Positions 38,849 to 58,506 of a stretch of 64,000 bases of DNA are shown here, piece by piece (the first letter of the stretch is position 1; each line of letters opens with the position of its first letter). The position numbers were made by a program, and so were the translations under genes. Source of the DNA: Candidatus Bathyarchaeota archaeon. GTDB taxonomy: Archaea > Thermoproteota > Bathyarchaeia > Bathyarchaeales > Bathycorpusculaceae. The DNA is taken from positions 359,516-423,515 of the forward strand of contig CAWGZR010000010.1 in NCBI GenBank assembly GCA_963827165.1. Reading direction: 5' to 3'. The notes under the pieces were generated by a model, which did no database searches, was not told the DNA's origin, and was given only the letters and a program-made list of their open reading frames with translations.

Positions 38849-38914
38849 GAACCATCACCTGCCTTCACATTTCTCTTAAACAAATTAATCCCCAACGGTA
38901 ATTCAGCAATTTCA

Positions 38915-39004
38915 AATTTAACTTATGAAGAACGGTTATGCTAAATGGGTAACCGACTTATAGTAAGTGGGTAACCCAGTTACGGTAAGTCGGAGTAGCT
39001 GAAA
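38915..39004. promoter_or_regulatory. 22-bp tandem operator/iteron-like repeats, copy A
   Basis: agaacgg ttatgctaaatgggtaaccgac ttatagtaagtgggtaacccag ttacggtaagt; homologous to 43757-43824. Confidence 0.6.
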
Positions 39005-39231
39005 ATAAACGATTACCAGTCAAGAAACGTTAACGGGAATTAGTCAAGGAACGAGGTTGTGAAAAAACTATTTTCAATTTCAGAAAAATGATTGTTTTAT
39101 GTGAAAAATAGTTGTATTGTAAAGGGATTTACACAAATACGACTCAACTTCTTCGGAGAAATTTGAGTTTTCACACACTCTCGAACCTTTACGGAAAGCC
39201 TTTTATCGTCCCTATTTTCATAATGCTAAGT

Positions 39232-40469: not shown

Positions 40470-40880
40470 GACCCCTTTGTCACTGTCGGGCGCATAATCT
40501 CCATAACCCTCCGCAGGACGCCTATTGACAACGCCTAATCTTCAAGCATCCTGCACTACTGTCGTCTTATCAACTTACAAGATTTCGTCTCCAAGTACCA
40601 CCCGTGTTGTCTTCGCGGGTGACGCCAGAAACCCTGATTGGTCACCGAGAAACTCACTTTGTAAATTCTTTAACTTCTCTTTTCATTGATTGTTCTTACA
40701 CGACGGATAAAATCTAAACAAATTGAACAAACATTTAAGTTGTATCTGAAAAATGAAGTAGTTTTGACATTTACTTTACATTTCTGAACATGCGATTTTT
40801 AGGGAAATTTTTTCTGAAGCGATCTATCTTTTGATTTTTGCTTTAGAGATGATATTAATAAAAAAAGGAAGGTTTGCTGC

Positions 40881-41048
40881 TCACTTTGGTGCAGCTTTTG
40901 GATCAGCATTTTCCTTCTTCAGCGACGCGTTTTCATCTATCAAAGTCTTTATGACGACGTTGAGCTGAGTCAGCATGTCATTAATCCGTAGATTTAACAG
41001 ACCAACTTGTTGCGTGATAGGATCGATGTTTGTTTGCCCTTGACTCAT
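40881..41048 (-). CDS. Small coiled-coil protein downstream of the fibre gene
   Basis: 'LNLRINDMLTQLNVVIKTLIDENASLKKEN'. Confidence 0.55.
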   Translation of the reverse strand: MSQGQTNIDPITQQVGLLNLRINDMLTQLNVVIKTLIDENASLKKENADPKAAPK

Positions 41049-41049
41049 T

Positions 41050-43609
41050 TTAGCTTGCACCAATCTTTGTGGCTTGTTGCAGTTGAGACCGTAAATTCTC
41101 GACTTCCTTTGCTAAGCCTTGAATAGCTGACAATGCATAAGTCGTTAGCATATTGTAATTCAAAGTGTGCTCGTCAGCATGCGTCGAACTCTTGTACACT
41201 GTCACAGCTTCTGGTACAATTTCAGCAACTTCTTGAGCAAAGAACCCTGCGACTATGTTGTTGCCTTTTTTGGTTTCAGGCTTCCAAGCGAAATGCAGCG
41301 GATTTAGCTTAGTTATTGCACTAAGAGCTGTTTTGGGACTTAAAGTTTCAACCAAGTTTTTGTCTCTTTGATCACTGGAAACGGCGATTTCTCCCCCACA
41401 GAAAATACCATAATATGCCCAAAGGGAGATATTCCCCAGCCATCCAATACTCTGGCCGGTGGTACCATTACTGTTCAGATATCCATAGCTTGAGGTGGTC
41501 ATTGGATTTGAACCAGTGATTACTACTTGTCCTGTAGCCGTTAAGTCTCCTAGCATCAAGTTACCCCATGGCCAGTTTTGCATGTATTGACCGCTTCCGT
41601 TTCCATATTTGAGCCACAATGTACTATTTCCTGAACCTTGCGGCGATGGATAGTCAATTAAAACTATTGCTGCAGGATCTCCTGTTTCGGTATAGCTGTG
41701 TCCAAGTTGTATAGCACCTCCGCCTGTACCTGTCTGGCTATTGGGGCTTGTACTCGAGCCCAGAAAACCGTAAGCACTGATGTCTCCACCGGCGGTTATG
41801 CCATATTGAGTTTGTATAAATGGCGCGTTAGGTTCCATCGAGCTAGTAACTGCGGAAAGATACGTTGGATAAGATGTTCCTTGATAAGATGCAAATAACG
41901 TTATTGTGCTTCCAGGAGCCTTAAGCGTCATGTTTCCTAAGCTATCATCCAGTGTGTTATTTTGAGTCTGAGTCATACCGCCGGGGGCTAATGTGAGTGA
42001 ATTAGTACCATTTGATTTAAGCGCTGTCCAATAGTTAACTAGTTCGCCATTGCCGATTACATTTGCATCGAAAAGCAGTTCTGAAGTTCCATTGCTAGCA
42101 ATAATCGCGGGTGACTGATGATTTATCCCAAGAGGGTATCCAGATGCTTTTACGAACATCGGGTTTGTGTCGCCGAGGCCAATATATCCATATGTTCCAG
42201 CTGCGTTCTGTACGTCCAACGATATGAGTGTAGCATTTCCTGAGCTGTCAAGATGAAGTGAGTTAGTTAGTGCGCTGCCACTATCGCGATAAATATTAAA
42301 GATGGTGTCGTATTTTAGCCAGATGCCGCCGTTCTGTATGCCTAGGCCATCCGTGTTGTTATATGTGTAGCAATCAAGTATCATGCCTGCATTAGAGCCG
42401 GCAACAGGAGCAGACCCTGACGCATTTGAATTTAGAATACCAGTTAGTGTTAATCCCGCGAATGTTGGAGAAGCGGTCAAAGCATTCTGTTTGCCGTTGA
42501 ATGTGGTCCAGTCTGAAGAGGCCAGATAACCATTCGTTGAGCCATTAGCTTGTGGGATCGAGATAACGTTGCCTGAAAGTTGCAATGGTGGAGACGCGCT
42601 AAGAGAACCGCTGGAAGTAATTGTGAATTGGGTTGTTGCAGAAGTGAGTCCTGTTGATGAAGCAGTCAAAGTTGGAGTGCCAGCATTGGCATCTTTGTAG
42701 TAAAAGTTACCTGAACTTTGCCCCGAAGAGATCGTTATAGAAGTAATCTGATTTGTTCCGCCTGAGTCAGAATAAAAGCTTCCGCCTGAAGAAGAAGTAG
42801 ACAAACCAACAGTAGCGCCACTTGTGACAGGATTCCCATTAGATGCCTGCACCTGAACAGTGATTACACTTGAAACTGACCCAACATTCACAGATTGGCC
42901 AGCACCAGCAGTATAAGCCAGTTTAGAAGCAGTTCCACTTGAAGAAGCTTTGAAAGTTGCCATGCAGCCAACCCACAGGGATGAAGTACCTGACGTTCCG
43001 CCTGAATCGGCAGTACCCGTTGCATTAACTGTTTTGTAGACTACTGCTTGACTAACATATCCGTAATTTCCAGCTGCCCCATCTAACATGGTAAAACCGT
43101 TTGTTGGATAAGTGATTGTAGTGTACAGTTGTATTGCCACTGCGCCAAACCATAGTTCAGCCGCTTGAGTTGTTGTCGCTGTGGTTCCTGTGTCTAAAGC
43201 GGAAGAACCACTACTAAGCATTCGCGTTAGTTGCAGTCTTGTCAAGAAAGCTGCTTGTTGCTAATCCGGAGAATTCAAACATTTCGCCTATAGCTTCATG
43301 TACAGAGCCGGAAAGAGTTACGCTTGCTGATGTTGAAGGTGTGCCCGATGCTTCAATTAGGCCGGCCCAAATTTCCATATTCAAGTTACTTCCACTGCCA
43401 CCGTATTCAGCGATTTGTCTTGTCCAAGTAACACCAGTTTGCACAATCGAAGAAACAGTTACGCCTCCACTTTGATTTGTAGTAATAGCCGCAACCAAGA
43501 GATTGTTATTGGTTGGAGTAGTAGTCAATGTAATGGTGAATGGCGTTGTTGTACTGTCTGTTCTAGCGCGGATTTGAAGTTCCGCCCTGTAACAAGCGCT
43601 CATGCTCAC
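41050..43609 (-). CDS. Tail-fibre/spike-like protein with C-terminal intramolecular chaperone (peptidase S74); frameshift near 43220
   Basis: 'SSDQRDKN...LNPLHFAWK...GFFAQEVAEIVPEAV...LNYNMLT..ALSAIQGL' plus coiled coil; G/S/T-rich body; 'NGYLASSDWTTFNGKQNAL' phage-fibre motif. Confidence 0.85.
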
Positions 43610-43756
43610 GGTTTAACCTCCCAAGCCATCGAGACTGTGTATCCATTTTTAGGCGAAGCTTTTGGCCGTTTTGTTGGAACCTGTTATCCGGGTTCCGATT
43701 TTTTTCACTTATCCGTTTCCATTTTTTATCCCTGGCTACTGTTTCGGCGGTTTTAG

Positions 43757-43824
43757 ATTTAAGGCATGTAGAACGGTTATGCTAAGTGGGTAACCCAGCT
43801 ACGCTAACTGGTAGGTAACTGAAA
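43757..43824. promoter_or_regulatory. 22-bp operator/iteron-like repeats, copy B
   Basis: agaacggttatgctaagtgggtaacccagctacgctaactgg, upstream of the fibre gene. Confidence 0.6.
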
Positions 43825-43962
43825 GTGAATGTTTTTATGGAAAAACAAGTGAAAGTGAAGAGGTTTACTTTCACTTACCCCTCCACTGTTCCAAGCTGTT
43901 GGTTCGACGTTTGGCTTTATAAGCTAAAAACGGAAAAAAAAGAAAGCCCCTAAGGTGAGAGA

Positions 43963-44244
43963 TTGAATTTAGAAGAAATTTTGTCTTCAGCTTGCAGGCG
44001 AAAAATAATCAAATATTTAGCAGAAAATGGCTCAGTAAATATAATGCGGCTAATTGTGGGAGTCAACAGTAAATACCCGCAAGTTAATTCTGAATTGCAG
44101 ATCCTACAGAAAGAAGGTATAATAAGTGACCAGCATATTGGTCGGACGCGTCTTATCAGGCTTAACAAACAAAATCCTGGTACTATGCTGATTCTTCAAG
44201 CGTTAAAAATCTTAACTGACAAAAAAGCGGATAAATCAAAATAA
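43963..44244 (+). CDS. ArsR-like winged-HTH regulator
   Basis: 'ILSSACRRKIIKYL...VNSELQILQKEGII....GRTRLIRLN'. Confidence 0.8.
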   Translation: MNLEEILSSACRRKIIKYLAENGSVNIMRLIVGVNSKYPQVNSELQILQKEGIISDQHIGRTRLIRLNKQNPGTMLILQALKILTDKKADKSK

Positions 44245-44255
44245 GGCGAAAATAG

Positions 44256-44654
44256 TTGGAACCGACAAAAAATCAAGATAGCGTATCTTCCAAAATAATA
44301 TGCCTTCTAAGAGACTTAGGCGCTCAAACGCTCAGTATTCAGGAAGCTCTAAATGCTCTCCTGAAACAGTCAGTTACTCTTCCTCTACAACTAATTACGC
44401 AAATAGAAGGCTTCATTGCTGAACACAGTGAGTTCGGTTTCAAATCCAAAGAAGATTTTATAATTAATGATGCCAGTTTCAGGTTGAATTGGCTTAACAG
44501 TAATAATGAACGTTTGGAGATAACAAGGGAGCGATACGACGAACTTGATGAAGCTGTCAAGGTGATGGAAACGCCATTTTGCAGTGCTGAGGAGTTCATA
44601 CAAACTCAAATAGACGATATTTTAGAGAAATACCATAACCATGTTAAAATCTAA
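44256..44654 (+). CDS. Protein with tandem ribbon-helix-helix-like units
   Basis: 'VTLPLQLITQIE....FGFKSKEDFI' and 'LEITRERYDELD....FCSAEEFI'. Confidence 0.55.
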   Translation: MEPTKNQDSVSSKIICLLRDLGAQTLSIQEALNALLKQSVTLPLQLITQIEGFIAEHSEFGFKSKEDFIINDASFRLNWLNSNNERLEITRERYDELDEAVKVMETPFCSAEEFIQTQIDDILEKYHNHVKI

Positions 44655-44839
44655 CGACATGAATAACTATCAATTGCGGCTTTGTCCGCCTCCTTTTCAG
44701 GTAAGAATTCATTTACGCAAAGAAAGAGGGGATTTTGCGAGTGAAATCACGAGAATTCAAATCTCTCCCTAAGTCACTTGAGAAAACAACCATTTTTTCT
44801 AACTTTGAAATTTTTGGTTTGGCCATACGAGGCCAATTG

Positions 44840-44940
44840 GGGCTTGCTGAGGCTCTGGATACTCATATGCGAAAAGAAAGTACAAATGTTTTTACGATAC
44901 GATGATTCCATCGTTATTTTAAGCAGAGCTTTCTCAGCCC
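44840..44940 (-). repeat. Bulged-hairpin repeat copy 1
   Basis: gggcttgctgaggctctg...cagagctttctcagccc; abuts the GNAT stop codon. Confidence 0.75.
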
Positions 44941-46010
44941 TAAAGTGTATTTTTTGGAATATACTGCATTGAAACGGTAAGTCGTTTTCGGCTTAGGCTG
45001 CCTCTCAATCCGTCATTTAATCGGCTGTTATTTTTTCCTTTGCTGGCATGTCCATGGCGCATTATTCTCCAATTATCCATGTTTCCTCGTACGATCTGAG
45101 GGTTACTCGTTAAGATGTAAAAGGGCATTTTTGTTTGTGAAGTGTAGAGTTCAGCTATGAAGTTTAAGAGCCGTTTGCCAACACCTATGCCTTGATAATC
45201 CGGTAAGACAACCAATCTGCTAACCCTAAAGTACCTTGACTTCATTTTGATATGCGCAACTGCGATAAACGCTATAGGCTTATTTTGATAGACTGCGGTA
45301 TAGCATCGGACGCCTGCTCCAAGCTTTCCGTTTAAATAATGATGTTGCCGAAACATCTGCCATAACTGAGCGCCGCACCGATAAACTTTGAGTTCAACGG
45401 ACGGCCGACTTCTTTTTTTCGGCTAAACTCCATAGTATCAGTGCAGAAAACCCAATCTGGTTCTAACCAGTCAACCACATCGTAATGGCAGGTTACAGCT
45501 ATAAACTTCTTTTTTGACCTGCGGACAGCCTTGCTAATCGCGTAAGCACTAACTTTAGCAATCTCCCTATCAACTACGCTTGTAAACTCATCAAAAACTA
45601 TCAAAGGTGAATCAAGGCATAAAGCACGGGGCAATGTCCACTCGCATCTTTTCCCATTGACTGAGACATTCATAACCTTTCAGCCAATCGGGCGGTGAAG
45701 CAAAACCAACACTGCAAAGAGCCCTCGTGATTTCGCTTGTTTCAAGCCCTTCAGGAAAATCATCCAAGACACATTTATGGAAATACTCAAAGCCTCTAAT
45801 GTAAGCATCAGGGAAAAGCTGCTTAGCAATGCTCGTTTTGCCAGAACCACTACGGCCAACTATAACGCCTACTTGCCAATCAGCATCTTCAATCGGTAGT
45901 GACCCTTTGAAATGCTTCTCCAGCTTCACATCAGAAAGGGTATAGCTACCAACTACACTTTTAGCTCGGAAGGTATCGGTTTGATTCCAACGTTTTACAA
46001 TGTCAAAATC
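44940..46010 (-). CDS. ABC-type ATPase plus GNAT (Mom-like) acetyltransferase, in three frames
   Basis: Walker A GRSGSGKT, 'FDEFTSVVDR', 'VTCHYD'; GNAT 'RVSRLVVLPDYQGIGVG'; start codon not evident. Confidence 0.8.
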
Positions 46011-46558
46011 CGTAGCTTGTAGCCCTCCGAGGTTAGCTTATCGAAAATGCGTTTTTGGTCCGCTTCATCTTTGCACTCAATGATTAACTCATATGTCTCA
46101 GGGATAGTTGCAGAAAAGCTATGTTCGCTTGAATCTTCAGGCAGTTTCTCGCCTATGGATTCGAGCAGAGCCTGCAAATCGTCTTTTTCGCCCGCTTGCA
46201 AGATGCGTAAGTACTCGGCACTATCAAGCTCTTTGTTGTGTTTGCCTTTCAGCTTGTTTAAAATTTGTCTGAGCATCCGTCTATCCACATCGCTTACAGG
46301 CAGGCGCAAAACAGGAGCGTAAAACTCGCCATGTTGCTTGCAGACTTCCGCCCTTTGTTCCCCATCAGCGTAGACGCCATCTTTATTGGTTATTATCGGG
46401 TAAGCCCAACCGTACTTCTGGAGGCTACACCAGATTTGCTGTTGCTGCTTAATTGTGGTGCGGTTTGGGTTGTTTTGGTCTGCAGTTAAGAGACGAATAT
46501 CTTCCAATAACGGCAGGTAGGCATCGGGGATTCTGAGGGTAGTTTTGTTTTCTGTCAT
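45995..46558 (-). CDS. ParB/Srx-like N-terminal domain protein
   Basis: 'NNPNR...SLQKYGWAYPII.NKDGVYADGEQR'. Confidence 0.75.
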   Translation of the reverse strand: MTENKTTLRIPDAYLPLLEDIRLLTADQNNPNRTTIKQQQQIWCSLQKYGWAYPIITNKDGVYADGEQRAEVCKQHGEFYAPVLRLPVSDVDRRMLRQILNKLKGKHNKELDSAEYLRILQAGEKDDLQALLESIGEKLPEDSSEHSFSATIPETYELIIECKDEADQKRIFDKLTSEGYKLRILTL

Positions 46559-46576
46559 GAACTTTTCGGTTTAAAA

Positions 46577-47011
46577 CTAGGCGGATTGGAGGTTCTTTGC
46601 GTCGATTAACGATTTAAGCTCAGCAATCTCATTTACTGCCTTAGCTGCTCTTTTGTCATGATCTTGCTTTTCCTTAAGCGTCTCTAACCCCAACAATGAT
46701 ACCATCCGGTCAGTAATCTCTACCATTTTAGAAAGATACGCTGGTTTTTGGGCGTCGTTTGCCGTTTGAAACTTAAGGCTTGCAGTGCGGTAGAGGTAAT
46801 CGTAGCGGTTAGTCACCATAAGTCGAGCCTTGTCTAAATCAAAGATTTGAGTTAAGATGGGTTGCCAAGTGTCGCGGGTTTCTGCATCATAGTAGATATT
46901 TCTCTCTGAGGTTTGGTATTTCTCGCTTAGTATCTTCACTATTTCACAGAGGGAGAAGCCTTTTGCTTCGAGCTTTAAGAATTCTAAGCGTCTTTCTAAG
47001 ACTTCATTCAA
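46577..47011 (-). CDS. HTH protein resembling a terminase small subunit
   Basis: 'KGFSLCEIVKILSEKYQTSERNIYYD' followed by helical region; position upstream of ParB/modification genes. Confidence 0.5.
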   Translation of the reverse strand: MNEVLERRLEFLKLEAKGFSLCEIVKILSEKYQTSERNIYYDAETRDTWQPILTQIFDLDKARLMVTNRYDYLYRTASLKFQTANDAQKPAYLSKMVEITDRMVSLLGLETLKEKQDHDKRAAKAVNEIAELKSLIDAKNLQSA

Positions 47012-47745
47012 GCGAAAGCCTCCAAAATTGAAATGCGGATTTCATTATCACTATAATCGGTTGTTCGACGTAGCATGTCGCCTTCCAACTTTACGTTTCG
47101 CTTTTCCTCTTCAGACAAGAAGTAGTACGGTTCCTCAAAGGTGGGGACATGATATTTTCTGCAGATTTTAAAGTAGGTTTCCACTAACTCGAATATGGTG
47201 CTGTCAGATAGTTTACCATTACCTTTGGTCTGGAGATGATTCCAGTTATAGGTTATATGCCAATAAAACCGTAAACAGATTTTCTCGTATTCCGAAGCTT
47301 TCGCCTGCAAAACATCTATCTTATCATAGATGCTTTTCATCCGCAACAGGAGGGTGAAGAAATATTTGCTTTTTGGGTCGCGCTGCGCTTTTGCTACGTT
47401 AACTTGCAGAGGCGCATTAGGGGGTTCATCCCATTCTTGCCCAAGCATGTTTGCTTCTTGCCTTGTCTGAGGATATTTTTCGATGAAATACGTGTTCATT
47501 TTTTGGAAGGTTTCTATAATTTGGAACTCTGCTCCAGACATTAGAGATAAATCAGTAATGCCGTCTTTATCTATGACTTCTGGAAATAACTGTTTTAGCG
47601 TACAATTCTTTGGGTCTATGCCTTCTTGGTTTAGTTTTTCTTCAGCAGGCGTTAATGGTGCTGTTACCTCTGGTGTGTTGTTGTTTTTTTGGTTCTGTTC
47701 CCGTATTTTCTCGTTTAAGTCCTCAAATGTGATATGACTCGCCAT
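47008..47745 (-). CDS. Hypothetical element protein
   Basis: 245 aa ORF overlapping the start of the next gene. Confidence 0.65.
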   Translation of the reverse strand: MASHITFEDLNEKIREQNQKNNNTPEVTAPLTPAEEKLNQEGIDPKNCTLKQLFPEVIDKDGITDLSLMSGAEFQIIETFQKMNTYFIEKYPQTRQEANMLGQEWDEPPNAPLQVNVAKAQRDPKSKYFFTLLLRMKSIYDKIDVLQAKASEYEKICLRFYWHITYNWNHLQTKGNGKLSDSTIFELVETYFKICRKYHVPTFEEPYYFLSEEEKRNVKLEGDMLRRTTDYSDNEIRISILEAFA

Positions 47746-47911
47746 TCTACTTTTTCTGACTTATTCGGTTTTATTAGAATTAACATACCTTTGCCTGCTA
47801 ACTTCTGTAGTCTGCTCGCTTTTCAAACCCTTAACATTAGAGACCTAACTAATTAGCTCCTGTTAGATTAACGATAAAAAAGGGAAAGAAGCTGCGGAGA
47901 GAGCTCCCATT

Positions 47912-47963
47912 TGGCGATATCGCCAATTCAGACTGGGTTCAAATCCCCCCCAGTCCACTTCAA
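47912..47963 (+). repeat. attR-1: palindrome tggcgatatcgcca + 9 nt + tRNA-Ala 3' copy
   Basis: 29/29 match of 47935-47963 to 33196-33224. Confidence 0.95.
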
Positions 47964-48013
47964 TTTATGCTTTCCGTGACGGTTTAAAAGCCAAATCGGA
48001 TTTTTTGCGTTGA

Positions 48014-48128
48014 GGGTTTGCTGAGGCTATGGAAACTAAAGGATGAAATTTCTTTTAGGAGAAAAAAGAAAAATGCAAACTCTTCAATTGCAGCTATATC
48101 GAATTTAACCAGAACCTTCTCAGCGCCC
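48014..48128 (-). repeat. Bulged-hairpin repeat copy 2
   Basis: gggtttgctgaggctatgg...ccagaaccttctcagcgccc. Confidence 0.85.
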
Positions 48129-48200
48129 ATTCTTTTGTTTCTCCGTTGTTTCTGTGGGACTAAAAAAAGGGATAAGGGGAATTGTTTGGTTGTTATAGGT

Positions 48201-50816
48201 TTATGGGCGTTTTCTTGTCACAATCAATGAGACTATGGCTATACCTATGATGAAGACAATGATCATCGCGACGACTGCGTACATGACTGTTGTGTTTGAG
48301 GCTAAGCCGCTAAGGGGTGTAACTGTTGGTGCTTGGTGTTGGTGCTGGGTTGCCTGCGCAGAGGTAGGTTGAGGCTGATGATGCGTAGTATGCGTCCGTC
48401 CCTGCGAACACCGCGTAAACCGTGTAGTTGCCGGGAATATCAGGTGTCCATGTTAAGCCATAGTTGCCCTGAGCGTTAGTCGTTGTTGTGCCGATGGCTC
48501 TGTAGTTGTTGTTGCTGTCTAAGACATAAAGCGTAACTGGAACGCCAGTTATGTTGGTTGGCATCTGCTGCTGCTCGTATACTGCCTCCATGAATCCCTC
48601 CATGCTCGCGTCAGAAACGCAGGGAAGACCGTTTGGAAAGTTCATTGCGACTGCGTTTTGTTGTGCTCCTGGAGAAAGGTCAGTTACCGTGCCTGTTATC
48701 GTCACCGGTGTAGAGGTTGATACGCCGACGGCGGGCGCTGTAACGGTTGTCTTGCTTGGTCCCAGTTGCGTAGGTGTAAACTTGGTTGTCATAGGAATTT
48801 GGCAGTAAGAACTCGCCATCTGCGGCTGCGCACGTGGCGCTATTAGCCTCGGCGAAACTAAGAATCTGCCACACTAACTTTCCTGTAGTAGCATTCAAAC
48901 AATAAGCGTGTGCTCCACGGAATAGTGGTGGATTGTAGGTGTGACCGCCGTTGAGGTAAATCATTCCGCCAGCAACAAGTTCAATAACTTTGACAGGCCA
49001 TGAACCGTAGACATTGTTGTAACCTGAACTACCGGTAAAGAAGTCCCATACAAGCGAGCCATTTGTATCGTTGAAAGCGTACACGTGTCCGTCAAATGTG
49101 CTAACGTAAAGACAGCCGTAAGCTACTTCGGGTAGATAATTGGAGACTTGGTTAAAGAATGTGGCTCCGTTGGGGGCAGTAGCAGTCCATAGCTTCTGCA
49201 CCTGTGGTGTCACTGTAAGCCGTCCATGTTGCCAACTCGCAATCGAATATGATGTACATGCCATTGCCCTCTTCAGTTATAGACGTTCTGGTCAATGTTG
49301 GTAGCGTTTGGTTTTCTATGAAGAGCTGCGCGCCGTTAATTATGCTGTAACCTCCTATAACGACCCAATTATTCCAGTTACCAGTTGGAGTCCAAGTGAC
49401 CAATTGTGTGTTGTCGCCAATACCTCCAAGCGCAGGAGTAAGGCCGATGGGCACACCAGAAAGGTTCATGGCTATCGGTGCTGTCCATTGTATCCCGTCG
49501 CTCCAAGGAATCGTTTCTCCAGATGCTACTGCAGTGGGTCCGAGAGGTCGCCAGAACCAACCGTCTGCTGAATAGGCTGGGTTACTCCCAGGTGAGCCAA
49601 GTAGAATGCAGCGGCTTGCGTTCCAACAGGTCAGCGTGTATTGCTTGGAATTGGTGGTGTTGATGTAGTAACCTATCATCGCGCCGTCTGGGACTGTAGT
49701 TAGCCATTTGCAGGTTACTCCCCCAGTGATTTGCAGTATATAATTTCCTGTCTCTGCATCATACAACGAGTACACTGTGCCCAGGCCAGTTACGGTTAAA
49801 GTTGTCCATAGGTATGATTCGCCGCCATATTGGTTGGGTGATATATAGTTGTATATCCAACCCCCTAGTAACGTGCCGTTCATCTGGGATTCAGATTTTG
49901 TCCACAGTGTCTGCCCAGTGCGTAAGTCGACAGCTGTTGTGCCTTCATAATAACTGGAGGCTCCCGGCGTTAATGTGTAGTAAAGTACTCCGTCCATGAC
50001 TGCGCATTTAAATTTGCATTCGTACTGCGCGGTTGAGTAGAAGTTGCTGTTTTCAGTGTTACCATATTCTCCTCCGATTAAGCCTCCTGGCGCTAACGGA
50101 GTTGTCCACAGTATATGGGAAGTGCTTGGCGCGTCTTGCATGTACGGGTCGTAGTTACTAGTGCTGTTGTAGCCTCGACCAGCGTTGCCTAAGTCATTGA
50201 GTCCAAACCAATTTCCGCTGATCATGTTCCAGCCGTTGTTGTTCATGTTTATTGGGCGAGTCCAGTAGCTTGTTGGAAGCGGGTTAAAAGGAATTGTAGT
50301 TGCTGGTGTGTTCGAAACTTGGATTGTTACAAGGATGCTGGTACTGGGTTGATAATAGTAGCCAATGTATTGGGCATAAGATGTTCCAGTCCATCCGCCT
50401 GGAGGCGGATTGGCACCGGTTAAAGTTTGTCCGCTGAAGATCAACTGGAAAGTGTAGTTGCCTATCATGGTAGGCACGTAAGTGGTATATCCAAATCCCG
50501 TATTATCCGTGGTGAGCCCAGTCAGATGGGTAACGTCTTTGTTGGGCGCCGTAATAACTATTGTAAAATTGTTAAATCGGTCACCATAAGCTCCGTCCGT
50601 TGTCAGTGTGACCTTGTCAACCCCGAAGCTGACATACATTGATTGACCTACCCCTATGGGGGAAGGTTGAACAGAAATGTAGGCGTATGTTGCTTGAGGA
50701 TTTGGTTGAGCCACTTGTGCCTTAGCAGTTGGCAATAGAATCATTGAAGCTGTCATTGAAAGCATAAAGAATATCGAAATCATAATAGCAAAAATCTTGT
50801 TTTTTAGCATTTTCAT
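48201..50816 (-). CDS. Membrane-anchored PQQ-type beta-propeller surface protein, paralog 1 (about three frameshifts)
   Basis: ORFs 49152-50816, 48680-49264 and 48310-48819 are collinear with the intact paralogs; TM anchor ending 'RKRP*' at 48201. Confidence 0.85.
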
Positions 50817-51010
50817 TTCTTTTTTTCTCCTTTATTTTGTTTGAGCGAAAACGTTGAGTTAACTATAAACTGCTATTTTTAACGCCCTCGCCCAACAGCA
50901 GATGTTTAATTTCATTTATTTTTAAGAACTAGTGTGTTAAGCTCTCACACAACACCACGCATCTTAACAAAATTTTATAAACAAATAAGTTGATACGTTT
51001 CATCTGAAGC

Positions 51011-51947
51011 GTGGGAAAATTGGAAAGCGTCTCGTGTACACACGTGGATCGTTTGTGCAAACTGGGATTGACGACTCTTCAAGCTAAAATTTACTTGCTT
51101 CTTTATGAGACAGGAAGAACGAAAATACAGGCGCTTGCGAGAATAGCTAATGTTGATAGAGCAAACACATATCAAATTCTTCGGCAGCTCCAAGAAAAGG
51201 GAGTAGTTGAAACAACAGTTGGAAAACCCACATTATATCAAGCCGTCCCACTGCAGGAAGCGACTGCAGCTTTGCTCGCGCAAAAGAAGCGTGAATTTGA
51301 GAAAGTAGTTGAGACTTCAAAAGAATTTGCTCCAAGAAACTGCTGAGCATGAACAAAAACTGCTTGACTTAAGTATGCCCCAAATCAGTTTTGTTTCTTT
51401 TGGAGAATCGTCGGCTAGCAAAAAGATAGATTTAGCATGGACTAATGTTCAAATATTAGCTGAGTTATATCTTGAAAAACCTCTTTTTGCAGAAAGTCTG
51501 GAACGGCCATGGGTAGGAAACATGTGGAAAGAAGCTATGAATAGAGGTGTTAAAGTGCGAGTAATTACACAGAATTTACAACAAAAAAGCGCATGCTTTA
51601 TTGATTCACTTTCGTCACTTGAGGAAAATAAAAATTTTGAAATTAGGTATACTGCCTCTCCGATTATTTGTCAATTTATCTGTCTTGATGGAAAAGAAAC
51701 TTGGCTTTTTGTAGAAAAGATAAATGGATTCGGGCAAGAACAGAGCATAATGCTAAGGCACAAGGGGCTAGGAAAAATGGCGCACACTTTCTTTGGAATG
51801 TTGTGGGATCAAACCCTTCCCGCCCTTCGCAATGAGCAGCGCACGCTTTCGCGTTCGACGAAACCCCAGTCTCAGACAAAAGCTCCAAAGAAAATTAACC
51901 TTTTAAAAGAAAAAAATGGGATTTTGAAGGAGATTTCGTCAACCTGA
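51011..51947 (+). CDS. TrmB-family transcriptional regulator (frameshift near 51330)
   Basis: 'LGLTTLQAKIYLLL...RANTYQILRQLQEKGVVE...KPTLYQAVP'; C-terminal 'RGVKVRVIT...EIRY...LDGKE'. Confidence 0.85.
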
Positions 51948-52032
51948 GAACATAAAAAAACTCTTGTTTCATTCTTGTGTTCCATCTTCTTTTTCTTTGA
52001 ATTAACAGGCTAAAGGAAAAAAGGGAATTCCA

Positions 52033-52061
52033 GGTGATATCTCCACTTCCGACTGGGTTCA
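52033..52061 (+). repeat. attR-2 (truncated): ggtgatatctcca + 9 nt + gggttca
   Basis: Shares gactgggttca with attR-1 and the 13-bp motif with attR-3/4; rest of the tRNA core is missing. Confidence 0.65.
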
Positions 52062-52193
52062 GGTTACCCGTTATCTAAATTGGACTAGGGGTTAAACCAA
52101 AAAGGGACAACTTACGACCTTTAAACAAAAACCACGGTATTATCAAAAACTTGGGGGTTTGCAATGGGTAATCGAATAATCAAAACTGAATTA

Positions 52194-52310
52194 GGGTTTG
52201 CTGAGGCTCTGGAAACTAAAGGCTGAGAATTTTTTTCTTTTGGAGAAAAAGAAAAATGCAAACTCTTCAATTGCACTATATTGAATTTAACCAGAACCTT
52301 CTCAGCGCCC
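52194..52310 (-). repeat. Bulged-hairpin repeat copy 3
   Basis: Near-identical to copy 2. Confidence 0.85.
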
Positions 52311-52381
52311 ATTTCTTTTCATCTCTTCGCGTTGTTTTTAATGTGACAAAAAAAGGGAAAGGGAATTTTGGTGTTTTTGGT

Positions 52382-55153
52382 TCACGGCTTTTTCCTCAGC
52401 AGAAGTAGGCCGACGACAGCGATTGCAATTATGATGGCGATCGCTACTGCAACGAATCCAAGAGTTAAACCCGACATTGTCGCTAGGTTTGATACAGGAG
52501 AAGCTGTTGGCGCCGGCGTTGTTACAGGGTTGCTAACGGTGAATGAGGTTTCATCTGAAGATGACCAGTAGCCAGCGTTACCTGCGAATGTTGCGTATAC
52601 AGTGTAGTTTCCAGAAATGTCTGGAGTCCATGTTAATGTGTAGAAGCCGGTTTTGTCAGTTGTGGCAGTGCCGATGGATCTGTAATTGTGGTTAGAGTCT
52701 AAGACGTAGAGGTTTACTGGAACGCCGGTGAAGTTGGTTGGTGCTGCTTGCTGTTGGTAAACATAGCTCATCCATTGGCTCATGCTTGCGTCGGATGCAC
52801 ATGGTACGCCGTTTGGAAAGTCTGCTACTTGTTCATTTTGCTTAGTGCCAGCAGACGTGTCCATTACTGTTCCGGAGATGACTACTGATTGCCCGAATGA
52901 CAAGCCATCGTGGGTCGCGGTAACTGTGGTTGCGCTGGATCCTTGGCCGACACAATAGATTTGGTTGTCATAGCCGTTTAGAGTCAGTGAGAAGCCGTCA
53001 GCTATAACTCCTACTTCCTGGTTTCCAGCTGGTGAGCCTGCTTCAGATGTGACGTCGTTTAGAGTCCAGATTTCTTTGCCGTTTGTGGCGTTGATGGCAC
53101 GTTGCAATGCGCCTTTGTAAATTGGGCTTGAAACTGTGTGTTCGGTGGTGCTTGTGTATATTACTCCGTTGCCGATGGCGTAAATTGAGGTTGGATAGTA
53201 TCCGGGTCTTTCAAAGCCGCTGTTTGTGCTGTTGCCAACTCCACCGTTGCCGTAGGTCCATAGTAGGTTCCCTGTTGCTAAGTTATAGCAGGACATTATT
53301 CCTCCGAAACCACAGTAGTAGAGCTTTCCGTATGCTTCTGCTGCACCTGCTTCGTTGCCGCCGCTGTTGTATCCGCTGTTGTAGTACATCAATTGCTGCT
53401 GGCTTTGGTCGCCGACTGGGCCCCAAATTTGTTTGCCTGTTGCCATGCTGTAACCGACGAACTGCATTGTTTCTTTGTGGAATTCGACGAAGACACCGTA
53501 AGTTGGATCGCCGTTGGCTGGTCCACTGTAGCTGACGGTTATGTTTCCTGCGGGTGCTGTTATTGTGTTACTCCAGAGTTCTTCTCCGATTGGACCCACA
53601 CTTGCGTTTAGGTTTAAGCCATAGTATGTGTAGGGTGTCCACGAGGTAGCTGATGGCATAGTTCCGCTGACGAGAATAGCCATGTTCCCGCTCCATGCCG
53701 CGACAATTGTGGGTGTCGGGATGACGCTGTTTAACCATGATAGCGAGTAGTTCCAGTCGTAGCTGTAGAGTGAGCTTGCGTTGTTAACGACATTGGCGTA
53801 GACCACATAGTTGTACATTGCAGGTGCGTTGGGGTTGTTTCCGTCGACTGCTCCTATCACTGGCTCAGTTACGGTTGCATACTGTGTTTGAGCTGTTGTT
53901 AAGGCTGTGCCGCTGGCGGTTGAGTCGTTGTAAAGTGTTGGGACGTTGTTGACTGCGCCGGTCCATGGGTTATATGTGCAATCCCAAATTCGAGAAGAAT
54001 TCCATTCGCTCAGGTACATTATATGGTTGCCTGCTGTGCCGAGATTTGAAAGGATAAGCTTTAGTTGTTCTCCTTGTGGACCGGGCATTGCTGTGCCTGT
54101 TGGGACGCCTGTAACGTTGAAAAGCGGGTCTCCCGTGTACGCGTCGTAGGCTCTTGCGAAGTTAGATGTGAACAGTATGGGTGGATAAATTCCGTGTTGG
54201 TTAGGATCATATAGGTATTGGACATAAGCGAACGATAATGAGGGGATTTGCGTGCTGCTCCAAAGGATTTGTCCTGTGCGGAGGTCTTGGCAGACCGTTG
54301 GTCCGTTAGCGGACCCGGTGAATGATACAGGCAATGTATAGTATAGGTATCCGTCGACGACAATGGGATTAGTGAATCTACCGTTGTATGCTGATCCATC
54401 AAAATATGTAGCGCCTGTGGTAGTGAAAGTTCCTCCTCCCGCGACTCCGCCCATTTGGATTGGGTAGGTCCACATGACATGGCTTGTTACTGGTCCTACT
54501 GCGTTTCCTGGCGGAACGCTGCAACCGCCAGCCCCAGTTCCGTAGCCTGCTGATCCCGTGCCCAACCAGTTAGATGAAATCGTGTACCAGTTGGTGTTTT
54601 CTCCGTAAATTGGGCGTGTCCAGTAGTTTGTTGGAAGCGGTGTGGTGGGGTAATACGAAATCGGGGTTTGTTGCACTGTGAATGTGCATGTTGCTGAGCT
54701 GGCTGCGTAGGTGTCGTTGATGTATGCCGAAGATGCAAGGTCGTCGCTTGTGGTGATTGCTTGTCCTGGGAAGGTGAAGTTGGCGGTGTAGGTGCCTGCA
54801 ACGGTAGGCGTGAAGGGATATTGTTGGTTGCTTGTTGGGTCGCTTACTACTGCAAAAGTTTGTGACACTATTGTTTTTCCGTCGGGTCCTGTTATTGTGA
54901 GTTCATAGTTATGGAATCTGTAATTGTTGTAGAGGTTTGTGTTGTCAAAAGTGTTAGATAGCCACATGTATACTGTTGCGGTTTGGCCGACTCCTATTGG
55001 ATTAGGCACGACCTGAATGTAAGCGAATGTTGGAACGCTCCAAGAAGGCGTGTGCGCGTTAGCTGTCGATATTAAGAATGTTGAAGCTCCTATCGAACAA
55101 ATCAAAATTGCTGCTATCAAAGTAGCCGTAAGTTTACTTTTTGTGTTTATCAT
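52382..55153 (-). CDS. Membrane-anchored PQQ-type beta-propeller surface protein, paralog 2
   Basis: 923 aa; signal peptide, 'TG..LW' repeats, Ig-like C-terminal domain, TM + RKKP. Confidence 0.9.
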   Translation of the reverse strand: MINTKSKLTATLIAAILICSIGASTFLISTANAHTPSWSVPTFAYIQVVPNPIGVGQTATVYMWLSNTFDNTNLYNNYRFHNYELTITGPDGKTIVSQTFAVVSDPTSNQQYPFTPTVAGTYTANFTFPGQAITTSDDLASSAYINDTYAASSATCTFTVQQTPISYYPTTPLPTNYWTRPIYGENTNWYTISSNWLGTGSAGYGTGAGGCSVPPGNAVGPVTSHVMWTYPIQMGGVAGGGTFTTTGATYFDGSAYNGRFTNPIVVDGYLYYTLPVSFTGSANGPTVCQDLRTGQILWSSTQIPSLSFAYVQYLYDPNQHGIYPPILFTSNFARAYDAYTGDPLFNVTGVPTGTAMPGPQGEQLKLILSNLGTAGNHIMYLSEWNSSRIWDCTYNPWTGAVNNVPTLYNDSTASGTALTTAQTQYATVTEPVIGAVDGNNPNAPAMYNYVVYANVVNNASSLYSYDWNYSLSWLNSVIPTPTIVAAWSGNMAILVSGTMPSATSWTPYTYYGLNLNASVGPIGEELWSNTITAPAGNITVSYSGPANGDPTYGVFVEFHKETMQFVGYSMATGKQIWGPVGDQSQQQLMYYNSGYNSGGNEAGAAEAYGKLYYCGFGGIMSCYNLATGNLLWTYGNGGVGNSTNSGFERPGYYPTSIYAIGNGVIYTSTTEHTVSSPIYKGALQRAINATNGKEIWTLNDVTSEAGSPAGNQEVGVIADGFSLTLNGYDNQIYCVGQGSSATTVTATHDGLSFGQSVVISGTVMDTSAGTKQNEQVADFPNGVPCASDASMSQWMSYVYQQQAAPTNFTGVPVNLYVLDSNHNYRSIGTATTDKTGFYTLTWTPDISGNYTVYATFAGNAGYWSSSDETSFTVSNPVTTPAPTASPVSNLATMSGLTLGFVAVAIAIIIAIAVVGLLLLRKKP

Positions 55154-55228
55154 TTTGTCTCTCTTCTTTTGGTTGTTCGCGCATAATGCGCTGGAACAGC
55201 AGATGTGAACAGGTTGCTAATAAGAGGC

Positions 55229-55245
55229 GCTCACTTATCGTGAGC
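55229..55245. promoter_or_regulatory. Palindromic operator GCTCAC-N5-GTGAGC
   Basis: gctcacttatcgtgagc upstream of paralog 2, next to a TATA-like ctaataag; repeated at 58563. Confidence 0.7.
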
Positions 55246-55578
55246 ATAAAAAATGTTAATTATTCTTTTATTTTATCTCCATAAAGACAGTCCGTTTCTT
55301 CGTCCGAGGGTAACCATTTAACTTAATGAAGTCAAAAGCTCGAAAGCCTCTTCGATTGTAGATGCTGTAATCTGAAATACCCTCTCTCTGATATTCATGC
55401 CATTTCAATGGTACTTGTGCCAGCTCTCCGCAATAGAATGCCATTTCTTCATCAATAGTCTATCAGTTGCCTTTCTGACGAAGAATCAAACCCTAAAATC
55501 GCCAAAACTGAAAATAATAGACATCACCAATGCAAATTCCCAAGAAAAATGGAGTGACAACATGTTGGGAGCGCGTTA

Positions 55579-55682
55579 GGGTTTGCTGAGGCTCTGGAAA
55601 CCAAGGATGAAATTCTTTAGGAGAAAAAGAAAATGCAACCTCTAATCGTTTATATTGGTGGTTATCCAGAGCCTTTTCAGCC
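55579..55682 (-). repeat. Bulged-hairpin repeat copy 4
   Basis: gggtttgctgaggctctgg...ccagagccttttcagcc. Confidence 0.85.
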
Positions 55683-55755
55683 ATTTCTCTTTCTACTGAG
55701 CTCATTTTTTATAAATTAAAAAAAGGGGAAAGAAATTTTGTTAAGCATTTTTAGT

Positions 55756-58506
55756 TTATGGGTGTTTTCTTGTAACGAGCAATGCTAGGACAGCACCAAT
55801 GATGACTATGACTACGATAATTGCGACGAGCCCATATTCGAGTGTGCTGTTTGATGCTAAGCCGCTAAGCGGTGTTGTGGTCGGTGCTTGCGTTGGTGCC
55901 GAGGCGCTGGCATAGAAAGCTGTTGAAGCGGAAGAGCCATAGTACGATTGTGTACCTGCAAACGTAGCATAGAGGGTAAAGCTACCGGTTATGTCAGGTT
56001 TCCATGTAAATGAGTAGTCGCCTAAACTGTTTGTTGTCGTTGAGCCGATTGATCGGTAGTTGTTGTTGGAGTCCAACACGTAGAAGGTTACTAGGACACC
56101 TGTTACGTTGCTTGGCATTGGCTGCTGCTCATAAACTGCCTCCATGAACTGCGTCATGCTTGCGTCAGAAACACATGGCAAGCCATGGGGGAAATTAGCT
56201 GCAACCGCTTCCTGCTTCGAGCCTGCGGAGATATCCATAACCGATCCAGTGATCGTTATCGGGGTAGCAGTTGTTACGCCAACGCTGGGTGCATTCACCG
56301 TTGTTTCGCTTGGTCCCATGCCGTAGGCATATATTTGGTTGTCATATGCGCTTAAAGACAAAAGTACTCCGTCAGAAATAGCTGATCCGCCATCGACGTC
56401 GAAATTCAATATGCTCCAGACTGGTTGGCCGTTGGTAAGGTTAACAGCGATCAGGTCAGCGCCGCGGAACAATGGTGGACTGTATTCATGTCCTTCACCG
56501 AGGAAGAGTATTCCATCAGCGATGGCTCCAGGGTTTCCGAATTGCCAGATTGGCCAAACTCCATATGGAGTGTCCGATCCTGCGGGTCCTGAAATTGTGT
56601 TAGTATCAGTTTGCCAAATTATGGATCCTGTACTCATGTTGATTGCATAGATATCTCCGCCAAAACTGCTCAGATACATCATGCCGTTGACGACTTGTCC
56701 GTAGTAGCTACCAATGCTGTTGTAGGCATCGGGGTTAGGTAGCGTAAAAGGTCCCCAGAGTTGTTTGCCCGTTATAATGCTGTATCCTGTGTATGCAGCC
56801 GTGTCTTGATTGATTTCTACGAAGATGCCGTTTGAAGTCTGTGAGAAGTCAACTCGGGTATATGGTGTTTCTGTCCTGTTAACTATCCACAGTTGTTGCC
56901 CTGTACTTTGACTGTAGCCTGCTTCTATGATAAATCCTGCGTTGTAGCTTGAACCGCCTGCACTTGCGATGGAGCTCAAAAATAATACGCCACTGTTAGC
57001 TGAGGCGCCGCCGGTTGTATAGGTCCCGCTGTTTAGTGAAAGAGTCGCGCTGGAAGGCAAAGCTGCAACTGAAGATAGAGGCAGAGGAACGCCATTGATG
57101 TTTGTTGCTAATGGTTGTCCCCACATTACTCCGAGAGGGAAGGATATTTGTCCGTTTTGTGTTGGTCTCCACATCCACGCTGCAGGACCATTAGTTCCGT
57201 CAACGATGCATTGTGTTGAGTTCCAGCATTCTAACAAAGCGCCGCCAGAAGGATTAGTGACAGGTTCGCCTTGAATCATTTGTGTACCTACTGTACTGTT
57301 GACAAAGTACCCGACTAAGTTTCCGCCGTTATCTTCAATTAGTGTATTCATTCCAGTTCCGTTGACAACGCTTAGAATGTATTGTCCCGTCACGGCGTCA
57401 AACATGTTCCACGTTGTTGTGCCAGCTTGAGCGACTATTCCAACTGGCGTCCCTGTGCTCCAGAGGTATGCTGTTGCTCCATATTGGTTCGGAGTTGTGT
57501 AGTCTAGTGTTTGGCCGCATCGTAGCGAGGTCACTATGCCGGCTGATGTTAAGGCGCTTTGGGCTGGAGAACCGCCTCCGAGGTTAGCTGAATTGTCAGT
57601 CCAGATTGTTTGACCGGTTTGCAAATCTACCGCAAGCCAGCCTGTTGGGTTATTGATGCTTCCAGTATACTGTTCGAAGTAGAGGATGCCTTGGATTATT
57701 ATCGGTTGGAACATTCTCTCGTACTGCCTGGTTGAGTAGTAATTGCTTGTATCTGTTCCACCGAATTCTCCGCCGATTTGACCTCCGAACGATTCAGGTT
57801 TGGTCCATAAAAGGTGAGCTGTCGTTGGTGCAGTCGTGTAAGGATTGTAGTTTCCTGTTGCATTGTACATCCCAGTGGTAGCGCTAAAGAGAGTACCCAA
57901 TCCGAGCCAGTTGCCACTAATGCTGTACCAAAGGTCATTGACCGATTCTATTGGGCGTGTCCAGTAGGTTGCGGGAAGGGGAGCTTGCGAAGCTGAAGGA
58001 GTCGCCTCTTGTTGCACTACTAGAGTTGCTACGTTGCTGGTAGCTGGTTCATAGTAATCGCCGATGTATGGTTTTGTTGCGGCAGAAAAGCCTGCGGGTG
58101 GGGGATTAGCACCAGCTAGTGTTTGTCCTGCATAGAACATTTGGAAAGTATAATTGCCAAGTTCAGTGGGAGTGAATTCGGTATGTGTTCCGCCGGTATC
58201 GTCGGATGTGAAGGGTCCCAACGTCTTAGTCGTTTTGTCTGGCAAGGTAACTTTGACTGTCATGCCTGTCCATCTGTCACCGTAAATTGTCCCTGCTGTT
58301 GGTGGGGCTTGACCAATCCAGAAGCCAACGTTAACAGATTGACCAATACCTGCGGGATTAGGTGCAACGTTGCAAAAAGCGTACTGCGGAATTTGCCATG
58401 CGGGTGTATGTGCATTGGCTGTAGACAGAACCGTAGATGGAATTACAATAGATAACATTAGAAACAGTGCCATCATTGAAAAAACTTTAATTTTTGAATT
58501 CGCCAT
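55756..58506 (-). CDS. Membrane-anchored PQQ-type beta-propeller surface protein, paralog 3
   Basis: 916 aa; same architecture, TM + RKHP. Confidence 0.9.
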   Translation of the reverse strand: MANSKIKVFSMMALFLMLSIVIPSTVLSTANAHTPAWQIPQYAFCNVAPNPAGIGQSVNVGFWIGQAPPTAGTIYGDRWTGMTVKVTLPDKTTKTLGPFTSDDTGGTHTEFTPTELGNYTFQMFYAGQTLAGANPPPAGFSAATKPYIGDYYEPATSNVATLVVQQEATPSASQAPLPATYWTRPIESVNDLWYSISGNWLGLGTLFSATTGMYNATGNYNPYTTAPTTAHLLWTKPESFGGQIGGEFGGTDTSNYYSTRQYERMFQPIIIQGILYFEQYTGSINNPTGWLAVDLQTGQTIWTDNSANLGGGSPAQSALTSAGIVTSLRCGQTLDYTTPNQYGATAYLWSTGTPVGIVAQAGTTTWNMFDAVTGQYILSVVNGTGMNTLIEDNGGNLVGYFVNSTVGTQMIQGEPVTNPSGGALLECWNSTQCIVDGTNGPAAWMWRPTQNGQISFPLGVMWGQPLATNINGVPLPLSSVAALPSSATLSLNSGTYTTGGASANSGVLFLSSIASAGGSSYNAGFIIEAGYSQSTGQQLWIVNRTETPYTRVDFSQTSNGIFVEINQDTAAYTGYSIITGKQLWGPFTLPNPDAYNSIGSYYGQVVNGMMYLSSFGGDIYAINMSTGSIIWQTDTNTISGPAGSDTPYGVWPIWQFGNPGAIADGILFLGEGHEYSPPLFRGADLIAVNLTNGQPVWSILNFDVDGGSAISDGVLLSLSAYDNQIYAYGMGPSETTVNAPSVGVTTATPITITGSVMDISAGSKQEAVAANFPHGLPCVSDASMTQFMEAVYEQQPMPSNVTGVLVTFYVLDSNNNYRSIGSTTTNSLGDYSFTWKPDITGSFTLYATFAGTQSYYGSSASTAFYASASAPTQAPTTTPLSGLASNSTLEYGLVAIIVVIVIIGAVLALLVTRKHP

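Follow-up and report, generated by a model that had tools for sequence, protein, structure and literature searches.

The bulge-helix-bulge (BHB), the motif cut by the archaeal tRNA splicing endonuclease, is defined as a 4-nt helix between two 3-nt bulges, and the archaeal substrates that the same source names for this enzyme comprise introns of tRNAs, the stems from which rRNA is processed, and a pair of isolated introns in mRNAs (PMC7714728). The same text describes the 16S and 23S pre-rRNA stems as inverted repeats around the RNA that form a helix with a BHB and give a circular intermediate after cleavage, and it names as substrates that are neither tRNA nor rRNA an intron in the 5′ untranslated region (UTR) of Haloferax volcanii HVO_1309 and an intron in the cbf5 mRNA of Crenarchaeota (PMC7714728). 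In other sources, a tRNA-Trp intron holding a C/D box small RNA is released as a circle, circular omega-RNAs are formed without a BHB (PMC12558985), and the permuted signal recognition particle (SRP) RNA of Thermoproteus becomes functional via BHB cleavage and circularization (PMC4731332). Here we describe a repeated element located in a stretch of 64,000 nucleotides, referred to as the window, from a Candidatus Bathyarchaeota archaeon (contig CAWGZR010000010.1, positions 359,516 to 423,515). An earlier note, made from the letters of the window alone, had reported four copies of a bulged hairpin placed behind genes and had offered three readings, an attC-like recombination site, a relaxed BHB and a miniature inverted-repeat transposable element (MITE). 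The four repeats are members of a conserved multi-copy family of ~100-base elements in Bathyarchaeia, and their ends pair into a BHB. We give a probability of about one half to the proposal that the elements are RNAs excised, and probably circularized, at this BHB by the tRNA-splicing enzymes.

A family of elements behind beta-propeller genes

All four copies lie on the minus strand, at 44840-44941 (copy 1, a divergent copy within a provirus), 48014-48127 (copy 2), 52194-52309 (copy 3) and 55579-55684 (copy 4), each span running from the outer GGG to the outer CCC. The positions given in the earlier note were borne out, with boundaries that changed by a few nucleotides when they were remeasured. 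When 2 mismatches at most were allowed, a pattern of 14 nt taken from the arms had 7 matches in the window against 0.89 expected from shuffles, and each of the four sites fits this pattern with 1 mismatch. In the 3.1-Mb genome to which the window belongs, a profile made from the copies (nhmmer) found 16 copies with E < 1e-5 (1.7e-41 to 7.3e-09) as well as fragments. The covariance-model scan that the earlier note had proposed was run, and it extends this family of 16 to 28 of 36 congeneric genomes, which carry 1-21 copies each. The model also matched 2/3 genomes of a second family and had no match in the 21 genomes that represented ten more families of the order; its matches in the first 61 genomes scanned number ~260. 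When 150 additional genomes were sampled across the class, only the genus's own family and this second family had matches (f1, 6/15, and f7, 3/5). The exact 19-nt 3′ arm is present in many Bathyarchaeota metagenome-assembled genomes, and the 5′ arm was found no more than 125 nt upstream of it in 90 of 121 stretches examined. The 19-nt arm also has a few bacterial matches, which have no 5′ arm with them and seem to be due to chance. One contig classed as viral (L280, IMGVR_UViG_3300033977_000275:1529-2147) has a gene-plus-element unit, with an anchor-type gene end, a T-run and a full copy of the element. Comparison with Rfam 15 gave nothing at gathering score over the whole window and, at E up to 10, weak chance-level matches over the copies in the region 44000-56500 (one such match scored 18.2 bits where the threshold is 65). 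A match to a known Rfam family, which the earlier note had considered adverse to its proposal, was therefore not found in this release.

Copies 2, 3 and 4 stand behind three paralogous genes of the minus strand. Paralog 3 (55756-58506, 916 aa), upstream of copy 4, codes for a protein with a PQQ-like beta-propeller and an Ig-like domain, whose C-terminal membrane anchor has LLVTRKHP as its last residues, and paralog 2 (52382-55153, 923 aa), upstream of copy 3, has the same architecture. Paralog 1 (48201-50816), upstream of copy 2, is broken into at least four reading frames, namely open reading frames (ORFs) of 554, 194 and 169 aa and a short anchor piece, with the TAA stop codon at 48201-48203. 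Other fragmented members of this gene family occur in the same genome, on C5 near 872 kb, 948 kb and 966 kb. The distance from the stop codons of the three paralogs to the element was measured as 71-73 nt (72-74 bp in the earlier note), and a T7 run lies between the two in all three cases, at 48162-48168 before copy 2 and at 52348-52354 and 55718-55724 before copies 3 and 4.

The association with this gene family extends well beyond the window. In a structure set (alignments A3 and A4) that comprises 144 copies drawn from 30 genomes, a stop codon is located 43-93 nt upstream in 109 copies, after a hydrophobic stretch and a basic tail that is typically LRKRP. This number was obtained with a filter and is a lower bound; about 10 more copies were missed, owing to a short fetched flank or to the strictness of the filter, and the tail is visible in their printed flanks. 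The upstream proteins carry PQQ-like propeller and Ig-like domains, and 20 of 23 partial upstream proteins from different genomes align over at least 200 aa with 19 others at 33-69% identity. Between the same genomes the arms of the element are 84% identical on average, and this difference (84% in the arms versus 33-69% in the upstream proteins) indicates that the arms are under constraint. An oligo-T run separates gene and element in 131/144 copies. Since all 26 family 3′ ends in the window's genome have such a run, with or without an element, the T-run belongs to the gene, which the element accompanies only optionally. In about 20 copies the upstream sequence is unrelated, and similarity there starts at GGG and ends at CCC. 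Spliced-type alleles, in which the flanks would be joined without the element, were not found in the window's genome. A split copy was observed there behind a family gene, with its 5′ and 3′ arms (C5:929697 and C5:934437) 4.7 kb apart and four ORFs in between, three on the opposite strand and one on the same strand.

Bulge-helix-bulge geometry and covariation of the ends

The ends were parsed in 133 of the 144 copies; the remaining 11 could not be parsed by rule and were dropped, and five of these read CAGU in place of CAGC. On the gene strand, that is, the strand of the upstream gene (minus in the window), the parsed ends read GGG-GCUG-(AGA)-AGGCUCUGG ... CCAGAGCCU-CAGC-(AAA)-CCC. The arms pair on this strand into a 3-4-3 BHB consisting of a 4-bp central helix (H2) and two 3-nt bulges on opposite strands, enclosed by an outer helix (H1) and followed by a 9-bp inner helix (H3) that closes an interior of 51-82 nt. 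H2 is GCUG/CAGC in 127 of the 133 copies, bulge 1 is AGA in 88, AGU in 32 and AAA in 8, and bulge 2 is AAA in 128. The commonest form of H1 is GGG/CCC, found in 51/144 copies, and this helix has 3 bp at best. The arms seen in the earlier note are indeed conserved. They are better written as GCUG-AGA-AGGYUCUGG / CCAGAGCCU-CAGC-AAA-CCC, with a 4-bp central helix, than with its 5-bp pairing, GCUGA/UCAGC. In an alignment of 44 sequences, the base after bulge 1 and the U before CAGC form A-U in 35, G-C in 5 and G-U in 2, while the rival 5-bp register leaves 37 A-U pairs and 7 A-C mismatches. The G-C replacements at this next pair fix the 4-bp register, which is also the one chosen by RNAalifold.

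The helices covary, as was found in a shuffle test. In the arms, 27 cells have changed on both sides, a number reached in 0 of 500 shuffles, and pairing is kept in 95% of the cells versus 25-45% when the partner is slid. The variant arm pairs of the long helix include GGCUUCAU/AUGAAGCC and AGACUCCAG/UUGGAGUCU, and the first inner hairpin is swapped for different hairpins at the same place in other copies.

In the window, the parts of the motif can be followed nucleotide by nucleotide, all on the minus strand. In copy 2, H1 is GGG(+C)/CCC, H2 pairs GCUG (48121-48124) with CAGC (48020-48023), the bulges are AGA (48118-48120) and AAA (48017-48019), and H3 is formed by 48109-48117 and 48024-48032. 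Copy 3 has H2 at 52303-52306 / 52200-52203, bulges AGA (52300-52302) and AAA (52197-52199), and H3 at 52291-52299 / 52204-52212. In copy 4, where the outer helix is cut down to ~1 bp, H2 is at 55678-55681 / 55585-55588, both bulges are AAA (55675-55677 and 55582-55584), and H3 is at 55666-55674 / 55589-55597. Copy 1 has H2 at 44935-44938 / 44846-44849, bulges AGA (44932-44934) and AAG (44843-44845), and an inner hairpin, ACGAUG/CAUCGU, unlike that of the other copies. The reading frames differ between copies, as the earlier note had stated; copy 3 has a 1-nt deletion that shifts the frame with respect to copy 2.

The handedness of the motif is that of tRNA introns. Each bulge lies 3′ of its strand of the central helix on the minus strand only, and the plus strand gives a mirror image that is not a BHB. 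The two tRNA-Ser introns of the window's own genome, at the positions given by ARAGORN, have bulges placed with the same handedness as the minus-strand element, and they share with it the first bulge, A-G-A. Additional, weaker signals point to the gene strand as the one from which the element is probably read. H3 has 53 G-U against 26 A-C cells on this strand, the interior folds better on it in 42 of 67 copies tested, and an oligo-T run follows within 80 nt downstream in 70/144 copies against 33 expected, clustered at +24 to +33 after the end of the model. The genome also encodes the enzymes that would be needed, since two splicing-endonuclease ORFs (PF01974, 190 and 184 aa; located by C14:31792-32034 and C9:269433-269687) and an RtcB ligase (588 bits) were identified. 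The 3-4-3 geometry, the tRNA-intron handedness, the covariation of the helices and the presence of genes for both cutting and joining support and sharpen the BHB option of the earlier note. Its description of the BHB as relaxed fits the four copies of the window because their outer helix is weak; the commonest form in the family is GGG/CCC.

Proposed excision of the element RNA and the alternatives

We propose that each element encodes a small structured RNA on the same strand as the gene in front, which would be made by read-through past the oligo-T stop of the gene or from a promoter overlapping the T-run. The 5′ and 3′ ends of this RNA would pair into the BHB (GGG/CCC, GCUG/CAGC, bulges AGA or AGU and AAA, and then the 9-bp helix). 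Cleavage within each bulge by the two-subunit tRNA splicing endonuclease, with ligation by RtcB, would yield a circular RNA, of 89-103 nt for the copies of the window, and the rejoined flanks. The predicted excised RNAs run from 44932 down to 44844 (copy 1, 89 nt), from 48118 down to 48018 (copy 2, 101 nt), from 52300 down to 52198 (copy 3, 103 nt) and from 55675 down to 55583 (copy 4, 93 nt), all on the minus strand.

A possible target is suggested by the interior of the element. UUGCA is present in 101/133 copies and CUCC in 115/133, mostly 11-17 nt apart (in copy 2, UUGCA is at 48074-48078 and UCUCC at 48058-48062, minus strand), and the conserved interior reads UUUGCAU, a spacer and UCUCCU(A/U)AA. 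The motif pair, when complemented and reversed, places GGAG ahead of AUG with 6-12 nt in between, and the start regions of the gene family have AGGAG, a very A-rich spacer and AUG(A/C)AAA. For the conserved interior the reverse complement gives a Shine-Dalgarno word, an 8-10-nt spacer and AUG(C)AAA, similar to the family's own very A-rich mRNA starts, and the element RNA may damp translation of the family mRNAs in trans. Duplexes predicted between the interior and 23 family starts had a median of -16.8 kcal/mol compared to -10.8 for 626 other starts that follow a Shine-Dalgarno-like word (p 3e-5), and we take this complementarity as a lead, not as a result. Carried further, the elements could be a new class of regulatory RNA, circular antisense RNA genes behind surface-protein paralogs whose exposed anti-Shine-Dalgarno and anti-AUG loops would pair with sibling starts so that one paralog silences the others. 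As the arms are nearly identical between copies, those of neighbouring copies could pair across a gene and might excise it whole as a circular mRNA. This extension is speculative and we consider it improbable.

The expression data available are contigs of four RNA libraries, which give no reading of strand, ends or abundance and may derive in part from carried-over DNA. In one metatranscriptome run, a 162-nt contig of low depth, with one difference, covers 47993-48115, within copy 2 and its trailer. The runs hold relatives of the propeller genes, and the provirus part of the window has no cover in the contigs of the four.

Several observations weigh against excision at the BHB. A joint at the bulges was not found among the assembled contigs of the four libraries. 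The 5-bp central helix can also be drawn in most copies, namely those with A-U at the next pair. The outer helix is weaker in all four copies of the window, where it consists of GGG with an extra C, AGG, or a single G. Pairing between leader and trailer beyond the outer helix has a mean of 5.23 of 10 in cognate pairs versus 5.03 in non-cognate pairs (p 0.12); an outer helix extended by leader and trailer was rejected as not significant overall, with a tail of 7 copies that have at least 9 leader-trailer pairs against 2.1 expected. The G-U excess that favors the gene strand is about 2:1 only and is not an independent count because the copies are related; the window's genome alone has 6 G-U versus 7 A-C, and in the outer helix A-C outnumbers G-U, 29 to 13. 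The excess of predicted duplex strength is not significant when 9 A-rich-matched control starts are used (median -14.5 kcal/mol, p 0.13). The element stands behind only ~11 of the 26 family genes of the window's genome. The T-run located 19-27 nt upstream of the element was considered as a sign of an own promoter, and it is also found at family genes that have no element; belonging to the gene, it is no evidence for a promoter of the element. With respect to the weak outer helix, the alpha-beta endonuclease, found mainly in the TACK superphylum, tolerates looser BHB forms (PMC7714728), and this tolerance matters because the outer helix is short, and weak in the window copies.

Some of these observations would be accounted for if the element were a structured gene-strand RNA that the endonuclease does not cut, either a 3′-UTR or read-through element that guards the surface-protein mRNA from 3′-5′ decay or a bulged stem and loops bound by a protein. 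Such an RNA would have the same structure, covariation and gene linkage, and it would agree with the shortness of the outer helix, with the lack of a bulge joint in the RNA contigs, and with bulges (A-G-A and A-A-A) far more conserved than the endonuclease is known to need. On the other hand, the exact 3-4-3 geometry with the correct handedness would be a coincidence, an oligo-T run stands between the gene and the element in 131/144 copies, and ~20 copies have no such gene in front. We regard this alternative as unlikely.

A second alternative operates at the level of DNA. The element could be a MITE-like repeat with imperfect terminal inverted repeats, or a hotspot of homologous or site-specific recombination among the surface-protein genes, in which case the covariation of the arms would be due to one protein recognizing both ends. 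The terminal inverted repeats, a feature of MITEs, are present and imperfect, the family is multi-copy with discrete ends from GGG to CCC where the usual upstream gene is absent, one copy is split by 4.7 kb, several copies are 5′-truncated beside tRNA-like attachment remnants, and the G-U excess is modest. In addition, one copy resides within a provirus, and its context deserves a description. This integrative element of ~14.7 kb (33145-47963) is inserted at a tRNA-Ala(UGC) gene (33145-33219, plus strand; the feature with the repeat extends to 33224). It is bounded by a 29-nt attachment repeat whose left copy (33196-33224, plus strand) includes the end of the tRNA-Ala and the following bases and whose right copy (47935-47963, plus strand) marks the provirus end, and it codes for an integrase of the tyrosine type (33276-34505), a primase of the archaeo-eukaryotic type (36156-37274), a protein that resembles tail fibres and has an endosialidase-chaperone domain (41050-43245), and a protein similar to ParB (45995-46558). 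Copy 1 lies within the provirus and copy 2 ~50 nt beyond its right attachment repeat. As the earlier note had indicated, copy 1 begins at the stop codon of a GNAT-like ORF (44940-45356), which proved to be the final third of one gene that is divided among three frames. The three overlapping ORFs at 44940-45929 are of 105, 113 and 138 aa; those of 113 and 138 aa match successive parts of the phage family phrog_11143, so that the gene is frameshifted or misassembled, and that of 105 aa has weak NTPase-type matches. Of 60 congeneric genomes, 40 have homologues of the split gene, the window's own genome has 7 matches to it, and among the matches listed for these genomes the homologues end at query position ~744-750, before the element. 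The sequence that follows differs each time in the 12 homologues inspected (7 from other genomes and 5 from the window's own), and no precise insertion boundary for copy 1 could be drawn among them. Because the homologues end before the element, copy 1 looks like a one-off acquisition. The earlier note was right in placing a copy inside the provirus, and as proof that the motif moves independently this copy is weak.

Other observations weigh against a mobile repeat. The length distribution of direct repeats in the flanks equals that of a mismatched-flank control, which leaves no excess of target-site duplications for the MITE option of the earlier note, and the element has no associated transposase. 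At least 109/144 copies are at a fixed distance behind one gene family whose proteins are 33-69% identical, and this argues for vertical co-inheritance rather than insertion. Moreover, different hairpins occupy the position of the inner hairpins from copy to copy, the single-stranded loops have conserved motifs, and G-U prevails over A-C 2:1 in H3. The MITE reading is not supported, and a DNA-level repeat in general seems quite doubtful.

Remnants of tRNA 3′ ends (T-arm and acceptor strand, tRNA-Ala-like) were observed in the window at 44722-44770, ~59750 and ~63789 and elsewhere in the same genome on C5 near 948.2, 959.4 and 962.5 kb, as well as in L133 and L181. After each of them come a short hairpin, AAAATCCCC and a T-run. 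They often adjoin an element copy or stand in place of its 5′ part, and repeated integrations have probably left them as scars. In 10/144 copies a convergent tRNA gene or fragment has its 3′ end 48-76 nt downstream, which by a rough estimate is far above chance; in one relative the convergent tRNA is tRNA-Ala(UGC), as in the window.

The attC sites of integrons lie behind genes and consist of imperfect inverted repeats, ~60-140 bp long, in which some bases are unpaired and the centre varies. The element shares these traits, its arms being imperfect inverted repeats with unpaired bases, and the gene-element-gene-element layout of the window, together with a stretch of six ORFs (44940-47745) bracketed by copies 1 and 2 in direct orientation, recalls gene cassettes that end in a folded single-stranded recombination site. 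In contrast to attC, the element has no R′/R″ core sites, integron integrase or cassette diversity. GTTRRRY was found at 0/133 ends on either strand, the sole tyrosine recombinase nearby is the provirus integrase, which stands by the tRNA-Ala and has its own 29-nt attachment repeat, and the cassettes would not be diverse, since 20/23 upstream proteins belong to one family and at least 109/144 copies follow it, with a spacer of 43-93 nt and its T-run kept between gene and element. The attC option of the earlier note is not supported, and we hold it to be very improbable.

A small gene or leader peptide on the plus strand (AGGAG, a 6-12-nt spacer and ATGCAA) would fit the conserved motif pair and spacing, which resemble the real start regions of the gene family, and it is just as improbable, given that ORFs from the ATG run for 9, 11, 28 and 50 codons with differing sequences (hand translation), that the codons would cross a hairpin replaced outright in other copies, and that UUGCA is missing in 32/133 copies. 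It is because the ORFs from the AUG of the reverse complement are short and mutually unlike that the interior is read as antisense and not as coding. A small protein on the gene strand was also rejected, as an ATG precedes the element in some copies only and the frames differ. The archaeal selenocysteine insertion sequence (SECIS) belongs to genes that contain an in-frame UGA; it lies in their 3′ UTR and takes the form of a short hairpin with a GAA/A internal loop. A SECIS was rejected, as the two intact upstream genes have no in-frame stop, the bulge does not face an unpaired A, and the helix of the element closes an interior of 51-82 nt. ARAGORN called a tRNA-Sec in the same genome (C4:157457-157540), and the organism may use selenocysteine.

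Comparison with known endonuclease substrates

Excision by the tRNA-splicing enzymes, if true, would suggest that this machinery is used for regulatory, probably circular, RNAs. A multi-copy, free-standing RNA bounded by a BHB and tied to one gene family would widen the list of endonuclease substrates, and no such RNA behind protein genes was found in the literature as represented by titles and the openings of abstracts. To our knowledge, the Bathyarchaeia are an abundant group that has no genetic system. The element would be a sequence-defined target for circular RNA searches in the peat and soil metatranscriptomes of these organisms, and it draws attention to the large family of propeller proteins as a cell-surface component that is likely to be regulated and variable.

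The likeness to archaeal tRNA introns is the closest. Both have a 4-bp helix and two 3-nt bulges with the same handedness, and cutting by EndA followed by joining by RtcB, as occurs with these introns, is what we propose for the element. By analogy to the intron of tRNA-Trp, the part that would be excised may contain a functional RNA; C and D boxes were not seen in the interior by visual reading. The element differs from tRNA introns in that it is outside any tRNA, its exons would be short non-coding flanks, and it has 16 copies in its own genome. ARAGORN detected no tRNA genes in the fetched flanks of the 144 copies.

As in the 16S and 23S pre-rRNA stems (PMC7714728), the element is an RNA flanked by inverted repeats that form a BHB helix. 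It differs in enclosing 51-82 nt that are not rRNA and in its outer helix, which usually has 3 bp, with a minority of copies extending to 9-10 pairs. An archaeal 23S rRNA gene is present in the window (8500-11520), where it stands alone, with no 16S gene in the 64 kb; its flanks pair into a long processing stem of ~-103 kcal/mol.

The permuted SRP RNA of Thermoproteus (PMC4731332) resembles the element as a stand-alone non-coding RNA gene whose product is a circle made by the tRNA-splicing machinery, which for the element is a proposal. That RNA is a known one in a rearranged gene, whereas the element matches no known RNA family. The possibility that the element itself is an SRP RNA was rejected, as a canonical SRP RNA gene is located elsewhere in the same genome.

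Finally, the introns of HVO_1309 and cbf5 (PMC7714728) lie in or beside protein genes, as the element does. They are single-copy and inside an mRNA, whereas the multi-copy element, whose interior is both conserved and structured, comes after a stop codon and an oligo-T run.

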